Shown one piece after another: positions 16,210 through 36,790 of a DNA stretch of 38,435 bases. Source of the stretch: Abditibacteriales bacterium. GTDB lineage: Bacteria; Armatimonadota; Abditibacteriia; Abditibacteriales; JANWYM01. The DNA lies in assembly GCA_025055355.1 (NCBI GenBank), contig JANWYM010000001.1:1-38435 (forward strand). The letters run 5' to 3'. Under the pieces are notes generated by a model that worked only from the letters and a program-made list of their open reading frames with translations, searched no databases and was not told where the DNA came from. Position numbers and translations under genes: made by a program. Numbering within the stretch: the stretch's first letter is position 1; the number at the start of each line of letters is the position of its first letter.

Positions 16210-16644
16210 ATGCCGACGATTAGCCAACTCGTCCGCAAAGGGCGGAAGAAGGTGAGACACAAAACGCGCACCTCCGCGCTCAAAGAGGCGTTCAATGCGG
16301 TGAAAGGCAAGCCGACGCGCAACTATGCCGCCCCGCTGATGCGGGGGGTGTGCCTCGTGGTCAAGACCGCCGCACCGAAGAAGCCCAATTCCGCGTTGCG
16401 GAAAATCGCCCGCGTGCGGTTGAGCAACCGCAAGGAAGTCACCGCCTCCATTCCGGGCGAGGGGCACAACTTGCAGGAACACTCGGTCGTGCTGGTGCGT
16501 GGGGGTCGCGTGAAGGACATGCCGGGCATCAAATATAAAATCGTGCGCGGCAAGTTGGACTGCGCCGGCGTGGAGGGACGCCGCCGCAGCCGCTCGCTGT
16601 ATGGAGCAAAGAAACCGAAGGAACCAGCGACCAAGAAGCAGTGA
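16210..16644 (+). CDS. rpsL: 30S ribosomal protein S12
   Basis: [21 protein letters not shown] and [17 protein letters not shown]. It carries a roughly 10-17 aa extra segment ([17 protein letters not shown]) relative to E. coli/Thermus S12. Confidence 0.97.
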
Positions 16645-16686
16645 GCAGTGAAGACCATTGACGGGTCACTGGCTACTGGTCACTGG
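16639..16686. repeat. intergenic tandem-unit element, GTGACCA/TGGTCAC family (imperfect)
   Basis: cagtgagcagtgaagacc overlaps the rpsL stop, and ggtcactggctactggtcactgg lies at 16664-16686. Confidence 0.55.
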
Positions 16687-16712
16687 TTGCCGTTGTTGAA
16701 GAGGTGATTGTC

Positions 16713-17183
16713 ATGCCTCGCAAAGGACCTGCGCCGCGCCGCCGGCTGGAGGGCGATCCGGTGTTCGGAAGCGTGATGGCGCAGCGGTTCATTAACTGTT
16801 TAATGAGGAAGGGCAAAAAGAGCGTAGCGGAAAAGATCTTTTATGGCGCGCTGCAGCGCATCGCGGAGCGCACCCATCGCAACCCGCTGGAAGTGCTGGC
16901 GCAAGCCATCCGCAACGTGACGCCTCTGGTGGAAGTGCGCTCCCGCCGCGTTGGGGGAGCCACCTATCAGGTGCCGACCGAGGTGCGCGCTGAGCGCAAA
17001 ATCTCGCTGTCCATCCGCTGGATTCTGCAATACGCGCGCGAGCGGTCGGAAAGAGGCATGATAGAAAAACTGGCGAACGAGATTTTAGACGCCTCGCGTA
17101 ACACGGGCAACGCCATCAAAAAGAAAGAAGAGACGCATCGCATGGCGGAGGCGAATAAAGCCTTCGCCCATTATCGCTGGTAA
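16713..17183 (+). CDS. rpsG: 30S ribosomal protein S7
   Basis: MPRKGPAPRR..., EVRSRRVGGATYQVP, C-terminal AHYRW. 156 aa. Confidence 0.97.
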   Translation: MPRKGPAPRRRLEGDPVFGSVMAQRFINCLMRKGKKSVAEKIFYGALQRIAERTHRNPLEVLAQAIRNVTPLVEVRSRRVGGATYQVPTEVRAERKISLSIRWILQYARERSERGMIEKLANEILDASRNTGNAIKKKEETHRMAEANKAFAHYRW

Positions 17184-17203
17184 AAAAAAAACGTCGGTTC
17201 GAC

Positions 17204-17270
17204 GAGTTCAGGGGGTTCAGGGGGTTCAGGGGGTTGATGGACCCCCCTGAACTCGTGAACCCATGAACTC
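17204..17270. repeat. intergenic hairpin built from TTCAGGGGG x3 (9-mers)
   Basis: Units at 17207-17215, 17216-17224 and 17225-17233. The opposing arm is acccccctgaactcgtgaacccatgaactc (17241-17270). It is preceded by an A10 run (17182-17191) and the mini-stem cgtcg/cgacg. Confidence 0.75.
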
Positions 17271-17279
17271 TAATTGGTC

Positions 17280-19457
17280 GTGGCAAGCGCAAGGTTTCCG
17301 TTAGAAAAAGTCCGTAACATCGGGATTGCTGCGCATATTGACGCGGGTAAGACGACGACGACGGAGCGCATCCTGTTTTACACCGGGCGGGTGCACCGCA
17401 TCGGCGAAGTGGACGACGGCGCGGCAACGATGGACTGGATGCCCCAGGAGCAGGAGCGCGGCATTACCATTACGTCGGCGGCGACGACCTGCTACTGGCG
17501 CGAGCACCGCATCAACATTATTGACACGCCAGGGCACGTGGACTTCACCGTGGAGGTAGAGCGTTCGCTGCGCGTGCTGGATGGGGTGGTGGCGGTGTTT
17601 TGCGGCGTCGGTGGCGTGCAGCCGCAGACGGAAACCGTCTGGCGGCAAGCGAACAAATACGCCGTCCCGCGTATCGCCTACGTCAACAAAATGGACCGCG
17701 TGGGGGCAGACTTTCATAACGTCCTGCACCAGATGCGCGACCGGCTGGGTGCGAAAATCATCGCGCTGCAACTGCCCATCTTTCGAGGCGGCGCGATCGC
17801 CCGCGCCCAGTGGGAAATTACCGAGGGTGACGCCGAGGGTAAGCCGCTGTCGGGCGAAGAGTTCATCGGCGTCGTGGACCTCCTGCGCATGAAGGCGCGC
17901 ATTTACACCGACGACCTCGGCACGGTCAGCGAAGAAACCGACATCCCCGCCGAACTCCAGGAGGCAGCGACGGCGTTCCGTCAATACCTCCTTGAAACGC
18001 TGGCGGAGCGCGACGAGGCGCTCATGGAGAAATACTTCGAAATGGGCGATCTATCCGTCGCGGACCTCCAACAGGCGATTCGCCGCGCTACCATCGCTTG
18101 CGACCTCGTGCCGGTGCTGTGCGGGTCGTCCTTCAAAAACAAGGGGGTTCAACCCTTGTTGGATGCGATCGTTGACTATCTGCCATCGCCGCTGGACGTG
18201 CCGCCCGTCGAGGGGCTGGACCCCAAGAGCGGTCAGTTTATCACCCGCCAAGCCAGCCCTGATGAACCGTTCTCGGCGCTGGCATTTAAGATTCAGACCG
18301 ACCAGCACGTGGGACGATTGACCTACTTCCGCGTTTATTCTGGCACCGTTCGGGAAGGCTCTTATGTTTATAATCCCACCAAGCGCGTCCGCGAGCGCCT
18401 CAGCCGCCTCCTGCGGATGCACGCCAACCGCCGCGAGAAAATCGTCGAAGCCACAGCCGGTGACATCGTCGCCGCCGTCGGACTGAAGGACACCATCACG
18501 GGCAACACGCTCTGTGATGAGCAGCATCCCATCCTCCTCGAAGCCATCGAGTTCCCTGAGCCAGTCATCTTTGCAGCCATTGAGCCGAAGACCAAAGCCG
18601 ACAGCGATAAACTCATTGATACCTTGCAGCGGCTCTGCGACGAAGACCCCACCTTCAAGATGCGCGTCGACCCGGAAACGGGACAGACCATCATCGCCGG
18701 CATGGGGGAACTCCACCTCGAGATCATTGAGGACCGCTTGCGGCGCGAGTTCAACGTGCAGGCGAACGTCGGGCGTCCGCAGGTGGCTTACAAGGAAGCC
18801 ATCACTCAAGTCGCCGAAGCCGAGGGTAAGTTCATCAAGCAGACCGGTGGGCGCGGGCAATATGGTCATGTCATCCTGCGCGTCGAGCCGCTCCTGCCCG
18901 GCGGTGGCTTCCAGTTCGAGAGCCTGGTCGTCGGCGGCGAGGTGCCGCGCGAATACTGGTCCGCCGTCGAGAAGGGTGCGGAAGAAGCGATGGAGTCCGG
19001 CGTGGTGGCCGGCTATCCTCTCATGGACGTCAAAGTCACCCTGTTGGGCGGCTCCTCCCACCCGGTAGACTCGTCGGAAATCGCCTTCAAATTGGCGGCT
19101 CAGGAGGCGTTCCGCAAAGCGGTCCAAAAGGCGCGCCCCATCATCAAAGAGCCGATTATGTCTATGGAAGTCATCACCCCCGAAACGTATATGGGCGATG
19201 TGCTGGGGGACCTCAGCGCGCGGCGGGCGAAAATTGAAAGCATCACCCCTGTGGTCGGCGGGCAGGCGATTCGGGCGCATGTCCCGCTGGCAGAGGTCTT
19301 CGGTTATGCAACCGCGCTGCGCTCCCTGTCGCAGGGGCGGGCGACCTACTCCATGGAGCCCAGCCACTATGAGCAGGTGCCGCCGCCCATCGCCGAGGAC
19401 ATCATCGCCAAAGTACGGGGTCATTATCCTCGTCTCGTGGCGGGAGGGACTCACTGA
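17280..19457 (+). CDS. fusA: elongation factor G
   Basis: [27 protein letters not shown], domain [16 protein letters not shown] and [11 protein letters not shown] 17280 is preferred over TTG 17274 by N-terminal alignment. No clear SD. About 22-aa insertion [25 protein letters not shown]. Confidence 0.95.
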
Positions 19458-19465
19458 CGATTGAA

Positions 19466-19530
19466 GGTTAGCACGTTCGCATGTTCAACGTCTCAACGTG
19501 CCAACGTGCCAACGTTCGGATGTTCCAACC
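19466..19530. repeat. intergenic tandem-unit element, CAACGTG family (8-mers x4)
   Basis: Starts with ggttagcacgtt at 19466. The four 8-mers tcaacgtc/tcaacgtg/ccaacgtg/ccaacgtt lie at 19485-19516, flanked by the direct repeat acgttcg[c/g]atgttc. The ACGT cores allow many pairings. Confidence 0.7.
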
Positions 19531-19550
19531 GAATTAAAGGAGACCATAGC

Positions 19551-20753
19551 ATGGCACGCGCAAAATTTGAGCGGACGAAGCCGCACGTGAACGTCGGCAC
19601 CATCGGACACATTGACCACGGCAAAACCACCCTAACCGCCGCCATCACCCAAGTGCTGGCGACGAAGGGACTGGCGCAACCCAAAACCTACGACGAAGTC
19701 GCCAAAGCCGACGCGAAGATGTTCCGACGCGACGCCACCAAAATTCTGACCGTCGCCATTGCGCACGTGGAATACGAGACCGAGAAGCGGCACTACGCAC
19801 ACATTGACTGTCCGGGGCACCATGACTACATCAAAAACATGATTACGGGGGCGGCGCAGATGGATGGGGCGATTCTGGTGGTGGGCGCCGACGACGGACC
19901 GATGCCGCAGACGCGGGAGCATATTCTGCTGGCGCGGCAGGTGAACGTGCCCTACATCGTGGTGTTTTTGAACAAGATAGACAAAGTCGATGACCCGGAG
20001 TTGGTGGATTTGGTGGAGTTAGAGGTGCGGGAGTTGTTGAGCAAGTATGGGTTTCCGGGCGATGAGGTGCCGGTGGTGCGGGGGTCAGCGGCGGCGGCGT
20101 TGGCGGACCCGACGGGGGAGGGGGGCAGGGCGATATGGGAGTTAATGGAGGCGGTGGACACGCATGTGCCCGACCCGGTGCGGGAGGTGGACAAGCCGTT
20201 TCTGCTGAGCATCGAGGACGTGTTTTCGATTCAGGGGCGTGGGACGGTGGTGACGGGGCGCGTGGAGCGGGGGAAGTTGCGGTTGGGGGAAGAGGTGGAG
20301 GTGGTGGGGCTGCGGGAGACGCGGAAGACGGTGTGCACGGGGATCGAGATGTTCCACAAGAGCATGGACGAGTGTGAGGCGGGGGACAACGTGGGTTTAT
20401 TGCTGCGTGGGGTGGGGCGGGAGGATGTGGAGCGGGGGCAAGTGGTGGCGAAGCCGGGGAGCATCACGCCGCACACGCGGTTTGAGGCGGAGGTGTATGT
20501 GTTAAGCAAGGAGGAGGGGGGACGGCACACGCCGTTTTTCAACGGTTATCGGCCGCAGTTTTACTTTCGGACGACGGACGTGACGGGTGCGTTGACGTTG
20601 CCGGCGGGGGTGGAGATGGTGATGCCGGGGGACAACGTGACGATGAGCATTGGGTTGATTTCGCCGATTGCGATGGAGGAGGGTTTGCGGTTTGCGATTC
20701 GGGAGGGAGGACGGACGGTGGGCGCGGGGGTGGTCACCAAGGTGATTGAGTAA
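19551..20753 (+). CDS. tuf: elongation factor Tu (non-canonical switch-I segment)
   Basis: [36 protein letters not shown] and a canonical domain 2/3. AAAGGAG 19536-19542. 400 aa. Confidence 0.95.
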
Positions 20754-21962: not shown

Positions 21963-22591
21963 ATGCCAGAACTGAACGTTTATAACTTGAGCCACGAGGT
22001 CGTCGGCACGGTTCACGTGAGTGACGCGGTGGCGGGCGCGCCGGTCAATGTGCCGCTGGTGCATCAGGTCGTCGTCGCCAACCAGGCGGGGCGGCGACAG
22101 GGCACGCGCAAGACCAAAGGGCGCGGCGAGGTGCGCGGCGGGGGGCGGAAACCCTTCCGCCAGAAGGGCTTGGGGCGCGCACGGCACGGGTCGCGGCGGG
22201 AACCCCAGTGGGTCGGGGGCGGCACGGTGCATGGACCGCAGCCGCAGGACTCCACCAGCGCACACCCCGCCAGATGCGGCAGGCGGCGTGGCTGGCGGCG
22301 TTTGCCTCCAAACTGTCCGCCGACGCTGTGTCCGTCGTGGACGGTTTGAACCTAACCGAATACGACACCAAACGGGTGGTGGAGATCCTCCGCACCTTTG
22401 ACGCGATAGACCAGAAGGTGTTGATTCTCACGTTATCGCCCAACGAGTTTCTCGTGAAATCCGCCGCCAATCTGCCCCGCGTGAGAGTGCAGGACCTTAA
22501 GTTCACGGACGTCGTAGACCTGCTGCACGCCGACCGCGTGTTGACGACGCGCGAGGTGCTGCAAGCGATCGAAAGGAAGGGGGCGGCATGA
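21963..22591 (+). CDS. rplD: 50S ribosomal protein L4, reading frame broken by a 1-nt frameshift near 22250
   Basis: Frame A (21963-) gives ...[43 protein letters not shown]. Frame B (to 22591) gives [21 protein letters not shown]... Together they form a normal L4. The stop overlaps the rplW start (ATGA). Confidence 0.85.
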
Positions 22592-23000: not shown

Positions 23001-23834
23001 ATGCCGATTAAGACTTTCAAGCCCACCTCGCCCGCGCGGCGACACATGACGGGCTATACGTTTGAGGAACTGACGAAGAAGCGCCCAGAGAAATCTTTGA
23101 CCGAGCCGCTGAAGAAACACGCCGGGCGCAACAATCAGGGACGGATCACGACGCGGCACCGAGGGGGCGGACACAAGCGTCTGTATCGCCTCATTGACTT
23201 CAAGCGGCGCAAAGATGGCGTGCCGGCGAAGGTCATCGCGCTGGAGTATGACCCGAACCGTTCGGCGCGGATCGCGCTGCTGCAGTATGAGGATGGTGAG
23301 AAGCGTTACATCATCGCGCCCCTGGGGTTGAGCGTGGGGGACACGGTGGAGTCCGGCGCCGACGTCGACATCAAGCCGGGCAACGCCCTGCCGCTGGAGC
23401 GCATCCCCGTCGGGACGACGATTCACAACATCGAACTCACCCCGGGCAAGGGGGGACAGTTGGTGCGCTCTGCGGGTAGTTCGGCGCAACTGGTGGCAAA
23501 AGAGGGCAACTACGCGCATATCAAGTTGCCCTCCGGCGAGGTGCGGCTCGTGCTCCTCAGTTGCCGCGCGACCATCGGGCAGGTGGGTAACACCGAGCAC
23601 GAAAACATCGTCATCGGCAACGCGGGGCGCAAGCGGCACATGGGCATCCGCCCGACCGTGCGCGGCAAAGCCATGCCCCCAGACTCCCACCCGCACGGGG
23701 GCGGCGAGGGACGCAACCCCGTGGGACGGAGGAAAACCGGTCCCACCAGCGCCACCGGCGTTCCCGCTATCGGCTACAAGACGCGCAAAAAAAAGAAAAA
23801 GTCGGATCGGTTGATTGTGAAGAGGAGAAAGTGA
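23001..23834 (+). CDS. rplB: 50S ribosomal protein L2
   Basis: [23 protein letters not shown], the SAG..A segment, HPHGGGEG. 277 aa. Confidence 0.97.
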
Positions 23835-23901
23835 CCAGTGACCAGTGACCAGTGGGCTGATTACTGATGACTGGTTAATCATTACTGGTCACTGGTCACT
23901 G
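23831..23901. repeat. intergenic hairpin, GTGACCA x3 / TGGTCAC x2 (heptamers)
   Basis: gtgaccagtgaccagtgaccagtg (23831-23854, containing the rplB TGA) pairs with ctggtcactggtcac (23885-23899). It is a near-copy of 29071-29134. Confidence 0.85.
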
Positions 23902-23910
23902 AGGGTTGTC

Positions 23911-25827: not shown

Positions 25828-26038
25828 ACATACCCTCAACGAGGAACGCAAACGTCTGCGCACCGCCAGCACGGAAGAGTTGCGCGCCGAGTTGGCGGCG
25901 GCGCGGCGCGAACTGGTCACCCTGCGCTATCAGTTGGCGCAGGCGGGCGGGCAGTTGGAAAACCCCATGCGCATCCGTCACACGCGCAAGCGCATTGCCC
26001 GGATTCATACGGTGTTGAGGGAGAGGAATGAAGGCTAA
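25814..26038 (+). CDS. rpmC: 50S ribosomal protein L29
   Basis: The L29 consensus region reads [50 protein letters not shown]. Overlaps the rplP end. Confidence 0.9.
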
Positions 26039-26179
26039 TGGTTAATGGTTGAGAGCCTCTCCGAAAGTAACGCAGGTTTCCCGCCTGCCTCAAGTGCCGC
26101 CAAGATGTCGGCGCTACGCGGTCTTCGGAGAGGCTCTAAGAGGCCGGGAAGCCGTTGAGCCTCAACCATCAACCATGCC
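26033..26179. repeat. composite nested hairpin: TAATGGT-unit outer arms plus an inner 12-bp perfect stem element
   Basis: Outer arms ggctaatggttaatggttgag (26033-26053) and ctcaaccatcaaccatgcc (26161-26179). Inner arms agcctctccgaa (26054-26065) and ttcggagaggct (26124-26135). gttgag is repeated at 26048 and 26154. Confidence 0.75.
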
Positions 26180-26188
26180 GTTTTGCCG

Positions 26189-26449
26189 ATGACCAAAACA
26201 CGTCACGCACGCAAAGAACGCGAGGGCATCGTTGTCAGCGACAAGATGGACAAAACCGTCGTCGTCGCCGTGCAGCGACTCACCCGCCATCCGCTCTACG
26301 GGCGCGTCATTCGCATCACGAGAAAGTTCAAAGCGCACGACGAGAAGAACGAGTGCCGCGTGGGCGACCGCGTCCGCATCGTGGAAACGCGCCCCCTGAG
26401 TAAAGAGAAACGCTGGCGCGTGGCAGAGATCCTGGAAAAAGTAAAATAA
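26189..26449 (+). CDS. rpsQ: 30S ribosomal protein S17
   Basis: [46 protein letters not shown]. The ORF opens at TTG 26183; ATG 26189 is preferred. Confidence 0.93.
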
Positions 26450-26452
26450 TCT

Positions 26453-26542
26453 CTGACCACGTGGCTACTGACCACAGGACCGGCAACCCGCCAGGTCAGC
26501 GGTCAGGGTCAGTGGTCATGTCGTCAGGGGTCAGTGGTCACT
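26453..26542. repeat. intergenic tandem-unit element, TGACCAC/GTGGTCA and GGTCAG units
   Basis: ctgaccacgtggctactgaccac (26453-26475) opposes ggtcagcggtcagggtcagtggtcatgtcgtcaggggtcagtggtcact (26494-26542). It ends 1 nt before the EF-G2 ATG. Confidence 0.7.
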
Positions 26543-28621
26543 ATGAAAATCTACCCGTCCAAGTCGCTTAGAAACGTCGCCCTCATCGGGCACACGGGCG
26601 CGGGCAAGACGAGTCTGGCGGACGCCATGGTGTTCACGGCGGGCGGCACGAACCGTCTGGGGAAGGTAGCGGACGGCACCAGCCTGTTTGACACCGACCC
26701 CGAAGAGATTGCCCGCAAGAACAGCCTGACCTCCGCCGTCGCTTGCGCCGAGTGGCGTGACCATCGCATAACCATCATGGACACGCCCGGCTTGCCGGAT
26801 TTCTTCGGCGCGGTGTTTGGACCGGTTCACATTGCGGATGCCGTCATCGTCGTGGTATCGGCAGTGGACGGGGTCGAGGTGCAAACGGAGCGCGCTTGGG
26901 CGCTGGCGCGCGAGCGCCATCTGCCCGCGATCGTGTTCATCAACAAATTAGATGCCGAACGCGCCGAGTTCGACAAAGTGGTGCAGCAGGTGCGCGAGCG
27001 GTTGAACGTAACGCCTGCCGTTGTGCAGCGCCCGATCGGGCTGAGCGCAAACTTCCAGGGCGTTGTGGACGTGCTGCGCGGGAAAGCCTACACATGGGCG
27101 GCGGGGGCGACAGGCAAAGGACAAGAAGGCGCCATCCCCGCCGACCTGCAGGCGGAGGTGGACGCCGCCCGGGAGTCGCTGACCGAAGCGGCGGCGGAAG
27201 GCAACGATGAGTTGCTGGAAAAATATCTGGACAGCGGAGAACTGTCAGCGGACGAGGTGCGGCAGGGTCTGCGGCAAGCGATTGGGACGGGCAAGGTCGT
27301 GCCGGTGCTGGGCGGCGCCGCCGACAGAACGGCGGGTGTGGCGAACCTCCTCGATGCCATCATTGATTTCTTGCCCTCGCCGCTGGACATCCCACCCGTC
27401 CCAGCGAAAAAGGCGCGCTCAGGGGAAGAAATCACAGTTGCCCCCACCGAGGGGGGACCGTTAGCGGCGCAGGTGTTCAAAACGGTTGCCGACATTCACG
27501 TGGGGCGTTTGAGTTTCATCCGCGTGTTGGCGGGCGAACTGCGCTCCGACTCGACGGTGTTCAACAGCAGCGATGGACAGCGCGAGCGCATCGGCCAGTT
27601 GTTCATCCCGCAGGGCAAGGAGCGCACGCCCGTTGCCAGCGCGAGGGTGGGCGACATCGTGACGACGGCGAAGTTGGAACACACCAACACCGGACACACG
27701 TTGTGTGACGAAGCCAACGCGGTCGTCTTCCGAGCACCCCAGTTCCCCCCGCCGACGATGTGGCTGGCGATTCACGCCAAGTCGCGCGGCGACGAGGACA
27801 AACTCAGCCTCGGCTTGCGGCGGCTCATCGAAGAGGACCCTTCGCTGCAATGGTATCGCAACAACGATACAGGCGAGACCATCTTAGCGGGACTGGGCGA
27901 TCAGCATTTACAGATGGCTATCGAGCGGCTCAAGCGGCTGGGCGTTGAGGTCACCACCTCCATTCCCAAAGTGCCCTACCGCGAGACCATCCGCAAAAAA
28001 GCGACTTACGTTGAGGGGCGCCACAAGAAGCAAACCGGCGGGGCGGGACAGTTCGGCGTGGCGGTCATTGACGTGGAGCCCCTGCCGCGCGGGAGTGGGT
28101 TTGAGTTCATTGACGCCATCGTGGGCGGCGTCATTCCCAGCACCTTCATTCCGTCTGTGGAAAAGGGCGTGCGCGAGCGGCTGGAACAGGGCTTCCTCGC
28201 CGGGTATCCGATGGTGGATGTGCGGGTGACGTTGGTCGACGGCAAGACGCACCCGGTGGACTCCAACGCCATTTCCTTCCAGTTGGCGGGGCGGCTGGCG
28301 ATAGAGAACGCCGTGCCGCAGTGCTCTCCGTATTTGCTGGAACCGATTTACAACGTGGAAGTGACCGTGCCAGAGGAAAACATGGGCGACGTGCTGGGCG
28401 ACTTGAACGGCCGGCGCGGGCGACCGATGGGCATGGACACCATCGGCGGCTGGTCGGTCGTGAAGGCGCAAGTGCCGCTCGCTGAGATGCTCACCTATTC
28501 CGCGACCTTGCGCTCCCTGACGCGCGGGCGCGGCACGTTTACGATGGAACTGTCCCACTACGAAGAGGTCCCCGCGCACCTCGCGGGGAAAGTGATTGAG
28601 GAGGCGAAGAAGAAAGACTAA
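26543..28621 (+). CDS. EF-G paralogue (EF-G2-type translational GTPase) inserted between rpsQ and rplN
   Basis: NVALIGHTGAGKTS (G1), DTPG (G3), NKLD (G4). All five EF-G domains are present, with domain IV HKKQTGGAGQFG and KTHPVDSN. The N-terminal pattern is like Thermus EF-G-2 as I recall it. 692 aa. Confidence 0.85.
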   Translation: MKIYPSKSLRNVALIGHTGAGKTSLADAMVFTAGGTNRLGKVADGTSLFDTDPEEIARKNSLTSAVACAEWRDHRITIMDTPGLPDFFGAVFGPVHIADAVIVVVSAVDGVEVQTERAWALARERHLPAIVFINKLDAERAEFDKVVQQVRERLNVTPAVVQRPIGLSANFQGVVDVLRGKAYTWAAGATGKGQEGAIPADLQAEVDAARESLTEAAAEGNDELLEKYLDSGELSADEVRQGLRQAIGTGKVVPVLGGAADRTAGVANLLDAIIDFLPSPLDIPPVPAKKARSGEEITVAPTEGGPLAAQVFKTVADIHVGRLSFIRVLAGELRSDSTVFNSSDGQRERIGQLFIPQGKERTPVASARVGDIVTTAKLEHTNTGHTLCDEANAVVFRAPQFPPPTMWLAIHAKSRGDEDKLSLGLRRLIEEDPSLQWYRNNDTGETILAGLGDQHLQMAIERLKRLGVEVTTSIPKVPYRETIRKKATYVEGRHKKQTGGAGQFGVAVIDVEPLPRGSGFEFIDAIVGGVIPSTFIPSVEKGVRERLEQGFLAGYPMVDVRVTLVDGKTHPVDSNAISFQLAGRLAIENAVPQCSPYLLEPIYNVEVTVPEENMGDVLGDLNGRRGRPMGMDTIGGWSVVKAQVPLAEMLTYSATLRSLTRGRGTFTMELSHYEEVPAHLAGKVIEEAKKKD

Positions 28622-28625
28622 CGTC

Positions 28626-28666
28626 TTCGTGTGTTCAGTCGTTACCCGCATACCCGAACACGCGAA
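28626..28666. repeat. hairpin downstream of the EF-G paralogue
   Basis: ttcgtgtgttc (28626-28636) pairs with gaacacgcgaa (28656-28666), 11 bp including one G-U, with a 19-nt loop. No U tract. Confidence 0.55.
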
Positions 28667-28701
28667 TCCGTGAATACTTGACTTGTGGAGGTAGGTAGGC
28701 G

Positions 28702-29070
28702 ATGGTGGCTCCGCAGACGCGGTTGAAAGTGGCGGACAACTCGGGGGCGCGCGAATTGATGTGCATTCGCATCCTGAAAGGCTCGAATGCGAAGTTTGCC
28801 AACATCGGCGATGAGATTGTGGCGGCGGTCAAGGCGGCGATTCCCGGCGCGCCGGTGAAGAAGGGCGACACGGTGCGCGCCGTGATCGTGCGCACCAAAC
28901 AAGGGATTGCTCGCCCAGATGGTTCTTATATTCGGTTCGACGAAAACGCTGCCGTCATCATTGATGATGCCAAGAACCCCAAAGGCACGCGCGTTTTCGG
29001 ACCGGTGGCTCGCGAACTGCGCGATGCGCAATACATGAAGATTATCTCGCTGGCGCCGGAGGTTGTTTGA
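28702..29070 (+). CDS. rplN: 50S ribosomal protein L14
   Basis: [23 protein letters not shown], the GPV.REL region, [15 protein letters not shown] 28687-28691. Confidence 0.97.
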
Positions 29071-29134
29071 GTGACCGGTGACCAGTAGCCAGTGACCAGT
29101 AGCCAGGGGGCTGATTACTGGTCACTGGTCACTG
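29071..29134. repeat. intergenic hairpin, GTGACCA family (twin of 23831-23901)
   Basis: gtgaccggtgaccagtagccagtgaccagtagccag (29071-29106) pairs with ctggtcactggtcactg (29118-29134). It starts immediately after the rplN TGA. Confidence 0.85.
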
Positions 29135-29142
29135 AGGTTGTT

Positions 29143-29502
29143 ATGCCAGGCTTACACATTAAACAGAACGATACCGTCATCGTCATCAGCGGCAACGAGG
29201 GTCCGCACGGCGGGCAGCCGGGCAAGCGCGGGCGAGTGCTGCGCGTGCTGCCGAAGAAGCAGCAGGTCGTGGTGGAGGGCGTCCGCATACGCACCAAGCA
29301 TATCCGTCGTCCGAAGGTGGCGCGCGCCTCGGCGATGCAGCAGGAGGGACGCATTCAGATGCCCGCACCGATCCATCGTTCTAACGTGATGCTGATCTGT
29401 CCGCGCTGTGACCGACCGACGCGGGTGCGGATGCGCGTGACCGAAAACCGCAAGCGCGTGCGGGCGTGCCGCAAGTGCGGACAGGAGAGAGACGAGAGTT
29501 AG
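29143..29502 (+). CDS. rplX: 50S ribosomal protein L24 (Zn-ribbon type C-terminus)
   Basis: HIKQNDTVIVISGNEG, KRGRVLRVLPKKQQVVVEGV, CPRCDRPTRV...CRKCG. Confidence 0.93.
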   Translation: MPGLHIKQNDTVIVISGNEGPHGGQPGKRGRVLRVLPKKQQVVVEGVRIRTKHIRRPKVARASAMQQEGRIQMPAPIHRSNVMLICPRCDRPTRVRMRVTENRKRVRACRKCGQERDES

Positions 29503-29515
29503 AAGGTGATAGGGG

Positions 29516-30112
29516 ATGGCAGAGAAAAAGCAAGCCACCGCTCCGCCTAACGGGGCGGTGCCTTTGTTGAAACAGCGTTATCAGGAGCAGGTTGTCCCGG
29601 CGTTAATCAAGCGGTTCGGCTATAAGAACGCGATGCAGGTGCCGCGCATTGTGAAGGTCGCGGTCAACATGGGGGTGGGCGATGCGAAGGAGGATGCCAA
29701 GCGGTTAGACGCAGCGGTCAACGAGCTCAGCCTCATCACCGGGCAGCGCCCCTCCATCCGCCGAGCGAAGAAGTCCATCGCCAACTTCCGCGTGCGGCAG
29801 GGCAACCCGATCGGTTGCGCCGTGACGCTGCGGGGCAACCGCATGTGGGACTTTCTGCTGCGGCTCATCGTCGCCGCGCTGCCGCGCATCCGCGACTTTC
29901 AGGGGCTGTCCCCCGACGCCTTCGACGGGCGGGGGAATTACACGATTGGCGTGCGCGAGCAATTGATTTTTCCCGAGATTAACTACGATAAGATTATTGC
30001 CTCCGGCGGGCGGGTGCGCGGCATGGACATCACCATCGTCACGTCCGCGCAGACGGACGAGGAAGCCCGCGCCTTGCTGACGGAGATAGGGTTTCCGATG
30101 CGGGAATCGTAG
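29516..30112 (+). CDS. rplE: 50S ribosomal protein L5
   Basis: [65 protein letters not shown]. Confidence 0.97.
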
Positions 30113-30191
30113 GGGACGGCAGGCAGCGAAGCGACGGCAGAGGGGGGAGAGGAACCCCTGTCGTTGTCCGTCGCTGTCCGTCGTGTTCCCC
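30112..30191. repeat. intergenic hairpin built from GACGGCA / TGTCCGTCG-like units
   Basis: ggggacggcaggcagcgaagcgacggcagagggg opposes cccctgtcgttgtccgtcgctgtccgtcgtgttcccc (30155-30191). Imperfect. Confidence 0.65.
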
Positions 30192-30207
30192 TGAGTGGAG
30201 GGATACC

Positions 30208-30393
30208 GTGGCAAAGAAGGCACTCATAGCCAAAGCGCAAAGACCACCCAAATTCGCGGTGCGCAAATACTACCGCTGCCAGCGGTGTGGACGTCCGCGC
30301 GGCTACATACGACGGTTCGGCATCTGCCGGATCTGCTTCCGCGAGTTAGCCTATCGCGGTGTGTTGCCCGGGGTGACGAAGTCCAGTTGGTAA
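30208..30393 (+). CDS. rpsN: 30S ribosomal protein S14, type Z (zinc-binding, 61 aa)
   Basis: [41 protein letters not shown]-terminal KSSW. GTG start 5 nt after GGAGGG. Confidence 0.93.
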
Positions 30394-30407: not shown

Positions 30408-30461
30408 GGGCACGTCAGCACGTTCTGACATGCTAACGTGCTAACGTGCCAACGTGCCAAC
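30408..30461. repeat. intergenic hairpin, CAACGTG family (8-mers x3.6)
   Basis: gggcacgtcagcacgtt (30408-30424) pairs with aacgtgctaacgtgcc (30435-30450). Tandem ctaacgtg/ctaacgtg/ccaacgtg/ccaac at 30433-30461, ending 3 nt before the rpsH ATG. Confidence 0.75.
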
Positions 30462-34650: not shown

Positions 34651-34706
34651 GTATTCGGGGGTTCGGGTGGGTAAGCCGTCACCCGAACCCCCGAACAACC
34701 GAATAC
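34651..34706. repeat. intergenic hairpin, 16-bp perfect stem TTCGGGGGTTCGGGTG
   Basis: 34654-34669 pairs with cacccgaacccccgaa (34680-34695) around a 10-nt loop. The outer gtattcgg/ccgaatac extension gives alternative registers. Confidence 0.85.
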
Positions 34707-34721
34707 CCGGACACCCCTTCC

Positions 34722-35771: not shown

Positions 35772-35808
35772 ATGGTCAATGGTCCAGGGGACGTTGACCA
35801 TTGACCAT
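35772..35808. repeat. intergenic hairpin, 13-bp perfect stem ATGGTCAATGGTC
   Basis: 35772-35784 pairs with gaccattgaccat (35796-35808) around an 11-nt loop. A related gtcaatggttcatggtcaat lies at 22898-22917. Confidence 0.85.
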
Positions 35809-35824
35809 TCACCATGACGAGAGT

Positions 35825-36714: not shown

Positions 36715-36790
36715 TGACCCCTGACCCCTGACCCCTGACCCCTGACCTTGCAGGTCGGGTGGTCCGGCGGTCAGTGGTTCTGCGGTCACT
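36715..36790. repeat. intergenic element: TGACCCC x4.7 (heptamers) opposed by GGTC-rich arm
   Basis: TGA of the unit at 36715, 36722, 36729, 36736 and 36743, so all three frames are covered. The right side is ggtcgggtggtccggcggtcagtggttctgcggtcactg. Confidence 0.75.

Follow-up and report, generated by a model that had tools for sequence, protein, structure and literature searches.

EFG II is a subfamily of elongation factor G (EF-G) paralogues of bacteria, recognised by the signature positions described by Margus, Remm & Tenson 2011 (PMC3150367). The only conserved genomic context in that survey was the str operon, and it applied to EFG I only (PMC3150367). Few translation-factor paralogues are as widespread as EFG II, and there is as yet no agreement on its role; the roles reported are those of an active translocase (Thermus), a slow, GTP-free starvation translocase (Bacteroides) and a stress factor that traps ribosomes (Mycobacterium). 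The solved EFG II proteins, T. thermophilus EF-G-2 (1WDT), B. thetaiotaomicron EF-G2 (7UVP/8DMF) and M. smegmatis EF-G2 (9K0Z/9K10), are without the catalytic histidine, with DAPGY, DCPGS and DTPGY, respectively, at this place. Bacteroides EF-G2 (718 aa, reportedly with a unique extra segment, and with a gene outside the ribosomal-protein cluster) is reportedly induced by starvation and is a proposed slow translocase that works without GTP hydrolysis. The mycobacterial EF-G2 shows minimal ribosome-dependent GTPase activity in M. smegmatis, traps post-translocation ribosomes and cannot recycle them (bioRxiv 10.64898/2026.05.25.727771). For T. thermophilus EF-G-2, ribosome-dependent GTPase and poly(Phe) activity are given in summaries of Connell 2007 (PMC3150367, bioRxiv 10.64898/2026.05.25.727771). 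Two EF-G genes in one genome are also seen with the division-of-labour pairs, Borrelia EF-G1/EF-G2, mitochondrial EF-G1/EF-G2 and Pseudomonas EF-G1A/1B, but the subfamilies of these are spd/mitochondrial or EFG I; mitochondrial EF-G2 retains the catalytic histidine (bioRxiv 10.64898/2026.05.25.727771).

The window, by which we mean the whole stretch of 38,435 nucleotides analysed here, is part of a 92%-complete metagenome-assembled genome of Armatimonadota in which just two EF-G genes were found, a canonical fusA and a paralogue. Both are on the + strand, as are the ribosomal-protein genes next to the paralogue. The paralogue (26543–28621) is free of stops, encodes 692 residues and matches the NCBIfam model for 'elongation factor G', NF009381, along the full length (873 bits). 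An alternative GTG at 26534, inside a repeat, is also in the open frame; the ATG at 26543 is preferred as the start, since MK is also how the homologues begin. Directly upstream is rpsQ (S17; 26183–26449; NF004123, 119.9 bits), the last gene of the S10 block, followed by a spacer of 93 nt (26450–26542), and directly downstream is rplN (L14; 28702–29070; TIGR01067, 179.4 bits), the first gene of the spc block, after a spacer of 80 nt (28622–28701). The genes rplX, rplE and rpsN (L24, L5, S14) were placed at 29092–30393 by tblastn synteny maps. The L5|S14 junction, which is the alternative EFG II site of another Armatimonadota lineage, is empty in the window. The canonical fusA (EFG I; 17280–19457; TIGR00484, 1036 bits) is in the str operon S12-S7-fusA-tuf (16210–20753), 7 kb upstream of the paralogue. 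It scores 887 bits against T. thermophilus EF-G, keeps DTPGH and ERGITI and is 40% identical to the paralogue. The initial annotation had placed both genes in this way, with the 692-aa paralogue between rpsQ and rplN, and the open reading frames and the S17, L14 and EF-G models agree with it.

The signature residues were read from a HMMER alignment to T. thermophilus EF-G and compared with Tables 1 and 2 of PMC3150367. Type-I positions are those that differ from EFG I, with Gly, Leu, Ser, Thr, Gly and Lys/Arg at residues 19, 28, 64, 316, 360 and 379 of T. thermophilus EF-G. The paralogue carries the EFG II residue at all six (Gly16, Leu25, Ser61, Thr314, Gly358 and Lys377 in its own numbering), and the same holds across 96 relatives. 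At the type-II positions (D224, V258, L272, K498, K499, E543 and G633 in T. thermophilus EF-G) it agrees in six out of seven (V255, L269, K495, K496, E540 and G630), the exception being N221 in place of Asp. The G2 element is relaxed from RGITI to xxxSx, reading RKNSL in the paralogue and ERGITI in fusA. The gene coexists with a str-operon EFG I copy and lies outside the str operon, as expected of EFG II. In a tree built without named EFG II references, the paralogue splits from the canonical copies with a branch support of 100% and groups with histidine-less paralogues from many phyla. By its signature positions, the paralogue is a member of the published EFG II subfamily.

With T. thermophilus EF-G-2 the protein shares the type-I positions, the relaxed G2, the KK of domain IV, the fast evolution relative to EFG I and the partnership with a str-operon fusA. 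Its divergence from EFG I is smaller than that of 1WDT: in full-length phmmer comparisons it scores 596 bits to canonical Thermus EF-G and 473 bits to Thermus EF-G-2, a ranking that speaks against the EFG II assignment. The structures 1WDT, 7UVP and 9K0Z rank at the top of the PDB for an Armatimonadota EFG II G-domain query. The AF2 model of the paralogue (pLDDT 90.8) is a confident five-domain EF-G fold, with a TM of 0.94 to ribosome-bound EF-G (7n2v) and of 0.86 to B. thetaiotaomicron EF-G2. Assignment to canonical EF-G failed, as the protein has DTPGL, GHTGAGKT and RKNSL in place of DTPGH, AHIDAGKT and RGITI, and its score against the canonical model TIGR00484 (677.7 bits) is barely above the cut-off of 659.4. 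It scores below the cut-offs of the Bacteroidota EF-G2 model NF058620 (591 bits; cut-off 1000) and the actinobacterial EF-G2 model NF009377 (621 bits; cut-off 890). NCBI-style models call both window genes 'elongation factor G', though one of them is without the catalytic histidine.

The paralogue shares homology with ribosomal protection proteins of the Tet(M)/Tet(O) type, and a tet_protect match of 286 bits reflects this, but it is far under the cut-off of 775 (NF012153); the Tet(M), Tet(O) and Tet(Q) models give 145–198 bits against cut-offs of at least 1100. Neither this reading nor that of a decaying fusA duplicate fits a protein of full EF-G length with EF-G-like domain IV loops, intact in more than 45 genomes and conserved at its family-specific positions. 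We regard both as effectively refuted by scores and conservation and give them almost no weight. The initial annotation had likewise set the paralogue in the EF-G-2 class and apart from Tet(M)/Tet(O), and the six type-I positions and the tet_protect score bear this out.

All motifs singled out in the initial annotation (GHTGAGKTS, DTPG, NKLD, HKKQTGGAGQFG and THPVDSN) are present. Those for nucleotide binding, the P-loop GKT, DxPG and NKxD, are kept, so that the claim of retained GTPase motifs stands for GKT, DTPG and NKLD; it does not stand for the residues around them. In switch II the catalytic histidine, the residue after DTPG, is replaced by Leu84; the P-loop aspartate, a contact of the sarcin–ricin loop, is replaced by Gly19; G2 is RKNSL; and G5 reads GAA instead of GSA. 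EFG II proteins usually have Tyr at the histidine position. Across the 96 EFG II sequences the catalytic column contains no histidine (Y 66, D 13, F 10, L 3, G 2, E 1, S 1), and all six canonical copies have it. M. smegmatis EF-G2 similarly has an altered P-loop and no RGITI, and its histidine is replaced by Tyr, where the paralogue has Leu. The equivalent change H88Y abolishes the ribosome-dependent GTPase of M. smegmatis EF-G1 (bioRxiv 10.64898/2026.05.25.727771). As the switch-II histidine and P-loop aspartate that trigger hydrolysis via the sarcin–ricin loop are both absent, the ribosome-stimulated GTPase activity of the paralogue is probably weak or absent. The proposal that it is an active ribosome-dependent GTPase finds no support, given the same two replacements. 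However, T. thermophilus EF-G-2 is reportedly active although it has no histidine, and therefore the loss of this residue is no proof of lost hydrolysis.

The tip of domain IV, as the initial annotation had noted, is retained with HKKQTGGAGQFG and THPVDSN. The positively charged tip (RHKKQTGG) and the HPVDS loop are those that reach into the decoding centre, and the window protein keeps EF-G-like loops here, whereas those of M. smegmatis EF-G2 are reported to be displaced. From these tips, the retained GTP-binding elements and the AF2 model, the paralogue is expected to bind GTP and to sit in the ribosomal factor site.

The conserved domain IV loops and G1, G3 and G4 elements could also be taken to mean that the paralogue is fully active as a ribosome-dependent GTPase and divides translocation and RRF-dependent recycling with fusA, both being made constitutively. 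The operon position favours constitutive expression, and both GTP hydrolysis on the ribosome and translocation have been reported for T. thermophilus EF-G-2. This reading has to accommodate the loss of the catalytic histidine, the P-loop aspartate and RGITI. The split of translocation and recycling put forward in the initial annotation is known from spd/mitochondrial pairs and from the Pseudomonas EFG I pair and not from EFG II; the recycling specialists, mitochondrial EF-G2 and Borrelia EF-G2, lie outside EFG II, and recycling is beyond M. smegmatis EF-G2. Assignment of the paralogue to spdEFG2/mitochondrial EF-G2 failed, as it scores 308 bits to mitochondrial EF-G2 (7l20), with fusA at 501, and has no histidine. 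We consider such sharing of work quite improbable.

The address of the gene differs from that of the EFG II genes examined in other phyla. The initial annotation had remarked that rpsQ is followed directly by rplN in known bacteria; this is so outside the lineage and in the sister family of the window, where the EFG II site is empty, but the insertion is an old lineage trait. Synteny of the rpsQ–rplN junction, which the initial annotation had proposed to survey in related genomes, was mapped with tblastn, and the residence of EFG II in the ribosomal cluster is conserved across the phylum. In 45 Armatimonadota loci EFG II has one of two positions within the spc cluster, S17|L14 (site A; 19 loci, the window included) or L5|S14 (site B; 26 loci). 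In a tree of seven neighbouring ribosomal proteins, sites A and B are on opposite sides of one branch (SH-aLRT 91), and the data do not reject a monophyletic EFG II of Armatimonadota (AU p 0.46). The EFG II address is one kept since the deepest split in the sampled phylum. Relocated copies in two families (f5 and f12) have unrelated neighbours, lpxC-fabZ-lpxA and genes without a Pfam match. Linkage of EFG II to ribosomal-protein genes was seen in none of the 78 close loci examined from other phyla. The arrangement also occurs on several complete single-contig genomes, which rules out an assembly artefact. All eight genomes checked have an intact canonical fusA. EFG II is always of full length and has the faster evolution of the two (mean pairwise identity of 50%, versus 66% for fusA). 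In the literature we found no description of an EFG II gene inside the ribosomal-protein cluster of Armatimonadota.

The spacers around EFG II are short in the relatives, with medians of 35/33 nt at site A and of 57/25 nt at site B, and many are just 0–30 nt. Terminator-like structures flank EFG II in one of the 19 site-A loci and two of the 26 site-B loci; in the window there is no terminator-like site on the + strand between 26000 and 29500. Short spacers and the near-absence of such sites make it likely that EFG II is co-transcribed with the flanking ribosomal-protein genes, a prediction from spacing and conservation. The view of the initial annotation that the paralogue is wired into the ribosomal cluster agrees with the spacers, the scarcity of flanking terminator-like sites and the phylum-wide synteny. 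The codon adaptation index of EFG II (CAI 0.70) is within the range of the ribosomal proteins, but other genes reach 0.52–0.70, so that the index barely discriminates as a proxy for expression.

The upstream spacer carries an inverted array of the heptamers GGTCAGN/CTGACCA, with a TRF array at 26494–26540. The repeat at 26453–26542 folds into a strong hairpin (−52.1 kcal/mol, z −4.72) whose end lies 2 nt short of the ATG; the spacer has no well-placed Shine–Dalgarno sequence for EFG II and no U-tract. The repeat had been described as a GTGACCA-family element by the start codon; it is real, but it is not specific to this gene. The (GGTCAGN)n family has 31 matches genome-wide and 4 in the control, other spacers of the window carry copies, and a role as an EFG II-specific element was rejected. 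Rfam gave no family match in the window; a sub-threshold miRNA match at 29072–29131 is a repeat hairpin. The separate hairpin reported after the gene (28626–28666) exists as a weak 10-bp stem (28627–28665), but it folds no better than shuffled sequence does (z 0.09), and as it also lacks a U-tract it was rejected as a terminator. The downstream spacer carries a GGAGG ribosome-binding site for rplN.

A hairpin of −52 kcal/mol could attenuate or uncouple EFG II expression. On this view the paralogue would be a stress or starvation factor, regulated independently through an internal promoter, through the hairpin or at the post-transcriptional level, and would accumulate only when growth slows. 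The hairpin directly before an ATG that has no good Shine–Dalgarno sequence, a promoter-like sequence at 26420–26447 that is a weak match (9 of 12) and the ties of the characterised EFG II proteins of Bacteroides and mycobacteria to stress or starvation are in keeping with this. We nevertheless think it unlikely: the hairpin is a genome-wide repeat present in many spacers of the cluster, spacers of 0–30 nt in many relatives leave no space for a promoter or terminator of their own, and the address has been preserved since the deepest split in the sampled phylum. The M. smegmatis fusA2 is a dispensable and separately located gene, unlike the window gene in its ribosomal-protein cluster.

With a probability of roughly 0.6, we favour a typical EFG II paralogue, vertically inherited in the S10–spc cluster of Armatimonadota, here in the rpsQ/rplN lineage, and auxiliary to fusA. 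The EFG II gene would most likely be on one mRNA with the flanking ribosomal-protein genes, and its synthesis would then track ribosome synthesis. The str-operon fusA would remain the main translocase and recycling factor because its catalytic residues are intact. By analogy with the characterised EFG II proteins, the paralogue would serve as a slow, low-energy auxiliary translocase or hold ribosomes in a particular state.

Its position inside the ribosomal-protein cluster throughout the phylum, with the residues for fast GTP hydrolysis lost and the ribosome-contacting tips kept, might also fit a factor for ribosome biogenesis or quality control that tests or licenses new subunits, which would explain co-expression with ribosomal proteins. 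In eukaryotes, the EF-2 paralogue Efl1 licenses new subunits. The case is one of analogy, there is no linked gene for an assembly-factor partner, and we know of no EFG II protein shown to act in ribosome assembly; we judge it very improbable.

The auxiliary EFG II of our preferred reading would have expression coupled to ribosome synthesis instead of stress, as the gene position suggests. A stronger form, which we regard as speculative and rather doubtful, is that the Armatimonadota EFG II is a GTPase-impaired, constitutive partner of the ribosome, made in step with it and fixed in the ribosomal-protein operon before the deepest split of the sampled phylum, and not a spare for stress. Such a partner could license new ribosomes or act on particular ribosome states as an obligate second translocase. 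For annotation, caution is needed, as the shared name 'elongation factor G' masks a histidine-less paralogue. A whole phylum that keeps EFG II at two fixed sites in the core ribosomal-protein cluster is a natural experiment, and in Armatimonadota the role of a permanently present EFG II could be studied; the cultured members Fervidibacter, Chthonomonas and Fimbriimonas are candidates for such study. If true, the constitutive partnership would mean a housekeeping role for EFG II, a family that has long lacked an explanation.

The plus strand of the window carries a complete str-S10-spc-alpha ribosomal supercluster. Canonical fusA (17280-19457, +; TIGR00484, 1036 bits) lies between rpsG and tuf. 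A second EF-G gene, the ORF at 26543-28621 (+), is flanked upstream by rpsQ (26183-26449, +) and downstream by rplN (28702-29070, +), confirming the position proposed in the initial annotation. Its 692-aa product matches the NCBIfam subfamily model NF009381 ('elongation factor G') end to end with 873 bits. The two EF-G proteins share 40% identity, and the MAG (5.1 Mb, 1060 contigs, 92% complete) yielded no further EF-G gene.

Compared with Thermus and E. coli EF-G, canonical fusA has ~22 inserted amino acids (residues about 165-190) at the G' subdomain entry, where its HMMER match breaks into two stretches. The only tuf found in the MAG (19551-20753) has a non-canonical switch I, especially at 19689-19775; in two relatives (genomes G167 and G125) this stretch reads APEERERGVTIN. 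The gene coincides with a jump in GC skew at about 19.5-21 kb. A chimeric assembly could account for this, as could a divergent second copy of tuf with its canonical twin missing from the assembly. Several stops interrupt the single-frame translation of rplD (L4, 21963-22591), fitting a frameshift noted from the sequence alone near 22248, which may be a MAG consensus error.

The paralogue belongs to EFG II, the EF-G subfamily of Margus, Remm and Tenson (PMC3150367). When the published signature positions are read from an alignment to T. thermophilus EF-G, all six type-I positions (G16, L25, S61, T314, G358 and K377) and six of the seven type-II positions (V255, L269, K495, K496, E540 and G630) are matched; the seventh is N221 instead of the expected Asp, and a relaxed RKNSL stands in for RGITI. 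This signature recurs in 96 relatives, with EFG I residues in six canonical copies, and in trees built without named EFG II references a branch with 100% support separates paralogues from canonical copies. The earlier assignment to an EF-G2 type rather than to Tet(M)/Tet(O)-type protection proteins thus holds: the Tet-type model scores 286 bits against a curated cut-off of 775. The EF-G2 models of Bacteroidota (591 bits, cut-off 1000) and actinobacteria (621 bits, cut-off 890) are likewise rejected. As a caveat to the subfamily assignment, in full-length phmmer comparisons the protein scores higher with canonical Thermus EF-G (596 bits) than with Thermus EF-G-2 (473 bits), and given these scores it would read as a slowly diverging EFG II. 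The AlphaFold2 model is confident (pLDDT 90.8) and superposes on ribosome-bound EF-G (7n2v) with a TM score of 0.94, as compared to 0.81 for Thermus EF-G-2 (1WDT) and 0.86 for B. thetaiotaomicron EF-G2 (8dmf). The gene is a real, ordinary member of a known family.

Its distinctive feature is its address. Of the named relatives, the best is Candidatus Thermosaccharophagus gerlachensis, of the phylum Armatimonadota, and most of 201 Armatimonadota genomes have two EF-G genes. We retrieved 57 loci with EFG II and charted the r-protein genes around each. The survey of the rpsQ-rplN junction suggested by the initial annotation places EFG II between S17 and L14 (site A) in 19 loci, window included; in a further 26 it lies between L5 and S14 (site B). 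Several of these loci are on complete, single-contig genomes, which rules out an assembly artefact. Copies outside both sites occur in families f2, f5, f12 and f30; in f30, 2.5 kb separate L5 from the EFG II gene, and in f5 and f12 the neighbours are unrelated genes. At locus L140 (G076:C67:6407-16458), about 2.5 kb between rplE and EFG II indicates that something is inserted at site B, and loci L144 and L145 (family f34) have two tandem S8-like matches downstream of S14. Throughout Armatimonadota, EFG II is housed within the core r-protein cluster, and which of two sites it occupies depends on the lineage; literature searches found no published description of EFG II in such a cluster. In other phyla (Thermodesulfobacteriota, Chloroflexota, Actinomycetota, Acidobacteriota and others), 78 close EFG II loci were compared, and neither S17 nor L14 lies within 4 kb of any of them.

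Seven neighbouring r-proteins (873 columns) give a tree in which a single branch divides site A from site B (SH-aLRT 91). One event thus separates the two arrangements, and each has been passed on vertically from then on. The EFG II tree shows broadly the same division, and an AU test does not reject a single clade of all Armatimonadota EFG II (p 0.46). At L129 (G095:C3:2232-12241, site B), both trees place EFG II with that of Synergistota (support 87-97), yet the r-proteins lie at the base of the B lineage; replacement by transfer without a change of site is possible, as is a long-branch effect. In the window's sister family (f2, same order), L14 directly follows S17 and S14 directly follows L5. 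Most f2 members have canonical EF-G alone; a minority (L096-L100 and L153) carry elsewhere a fast-evolving EFG II (branch about 0.7), which still clusters with the site-A copies. This suggests that the gene moved out of the operon and then came under relaxed constraint or was lost. Over the same eight genomes, mean identity is 66% for fusA and 50% for EFG II orthologues; AHIDAGKT and DTPGH are intact in all the fusA copies, and all the EFG II copies are full length. In line with what is described for EFG II, such a pattern marks a paralogue that evolves faster yet stays under selection.

Short spacers separate the gene from its neighbours (medians of 35 and 33 nt for site A, 57 and 25 nt for site B), and many measure 0-30 nt. 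Terminator-like structures flank the gene in 1 of 19 site-A and 2 of 26 site-B loci, and none was found on the plus strand beside the window's copy. A weak promoter-like match (9/12) lies at 26420-26447, and no Rfam family matches in the window. Codon usage is native and r-protein-like, a measure that discriminates poorly. The separate downstream hairpin of the initial annotation is no more stable than expected by chance. The repeat it placed directly before the ATG is present: the 93-nt spacer upstream consists of GGTCAGN heptamers in an inverted array, whose fold reaches -52 kcal/mol (z -4.7) and stops 2 nt short of the ATG. As a device of this gene the hairpin is rejected, the family being genome-wide; (GGTCAGN)3 occurs 31 times (reversed control, 4) on at least 20 contigs, and the family recurs in other window spacers. 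The hairpin may damp translation of the window's EFG II. Short tandem repeats of 7-9 nt, often inverted arrays forming hairpins, occupy many ribosomal-cluster spacers (16664-16687, 17206-17235, 23830-23902, 26036-26050, 26162-26176, 26494-26540, 29078-29134, 30420-30461, 34680-34716, 35794-35815 and 36715-36747); the heptamers resemble cyanobacterial STRR repeats.

The motifs from which an active GTPase had been proposed (GHTGAGKTS, DTPG and NKLD) are in place, but the catalytic residues around them speak against that activity. Leu84 replaces the switch-II His after DTPG (His87 of Thermus EF-G), Gly19 replaces the P-loop Asp (Asp22) and the switch-I RGITI motif is lost. His is absent from this column in all 96 EFG II sequences (Y 66, D 13, F 10, L 3, G 2, E 1, S 1) and present in all canonical copies. 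PDB alignments show three studied EFG II proteins without it: Thermus EF-G-2 (DAPGY), B. thetaiotaomicron EF-G2 (DCPGS) and M. smegmatis EF-G2 (DTPGY). According to a 2026 preprint on M. smegmatis (10.64898/2026.05.25.727771), H88Y nearly abolishes the ribosome-dependent GTPase of EF-G1, and EF-G2 has minimal activity, cannot recycle ribosomes and traps post-translocation ribosomes under stress. Hydrolysis by the window protein is likely weak or absent, but this is not certain because GTP hydrolysis and translocation are reported for Thermus EF-G-2 (PMC3150367 and 10.64898/2026.05.25.727771). The domain-IV tips, correctly noted as kept, are conserved (RHKKQTGGAGQ and HPVDS), an indication that the protein truly engages the decoding centre. 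Neither stoichiometric use of two EF-Gs nor a split of translocation and recycling finds support in the sequence evidence; canonical fusA is more like mitochondrial EF-G2 than the paralogue is. The protein is most likely an auxiliary factor that binds GTP, hydrolyses it poorly and is produced together with ribosomes.
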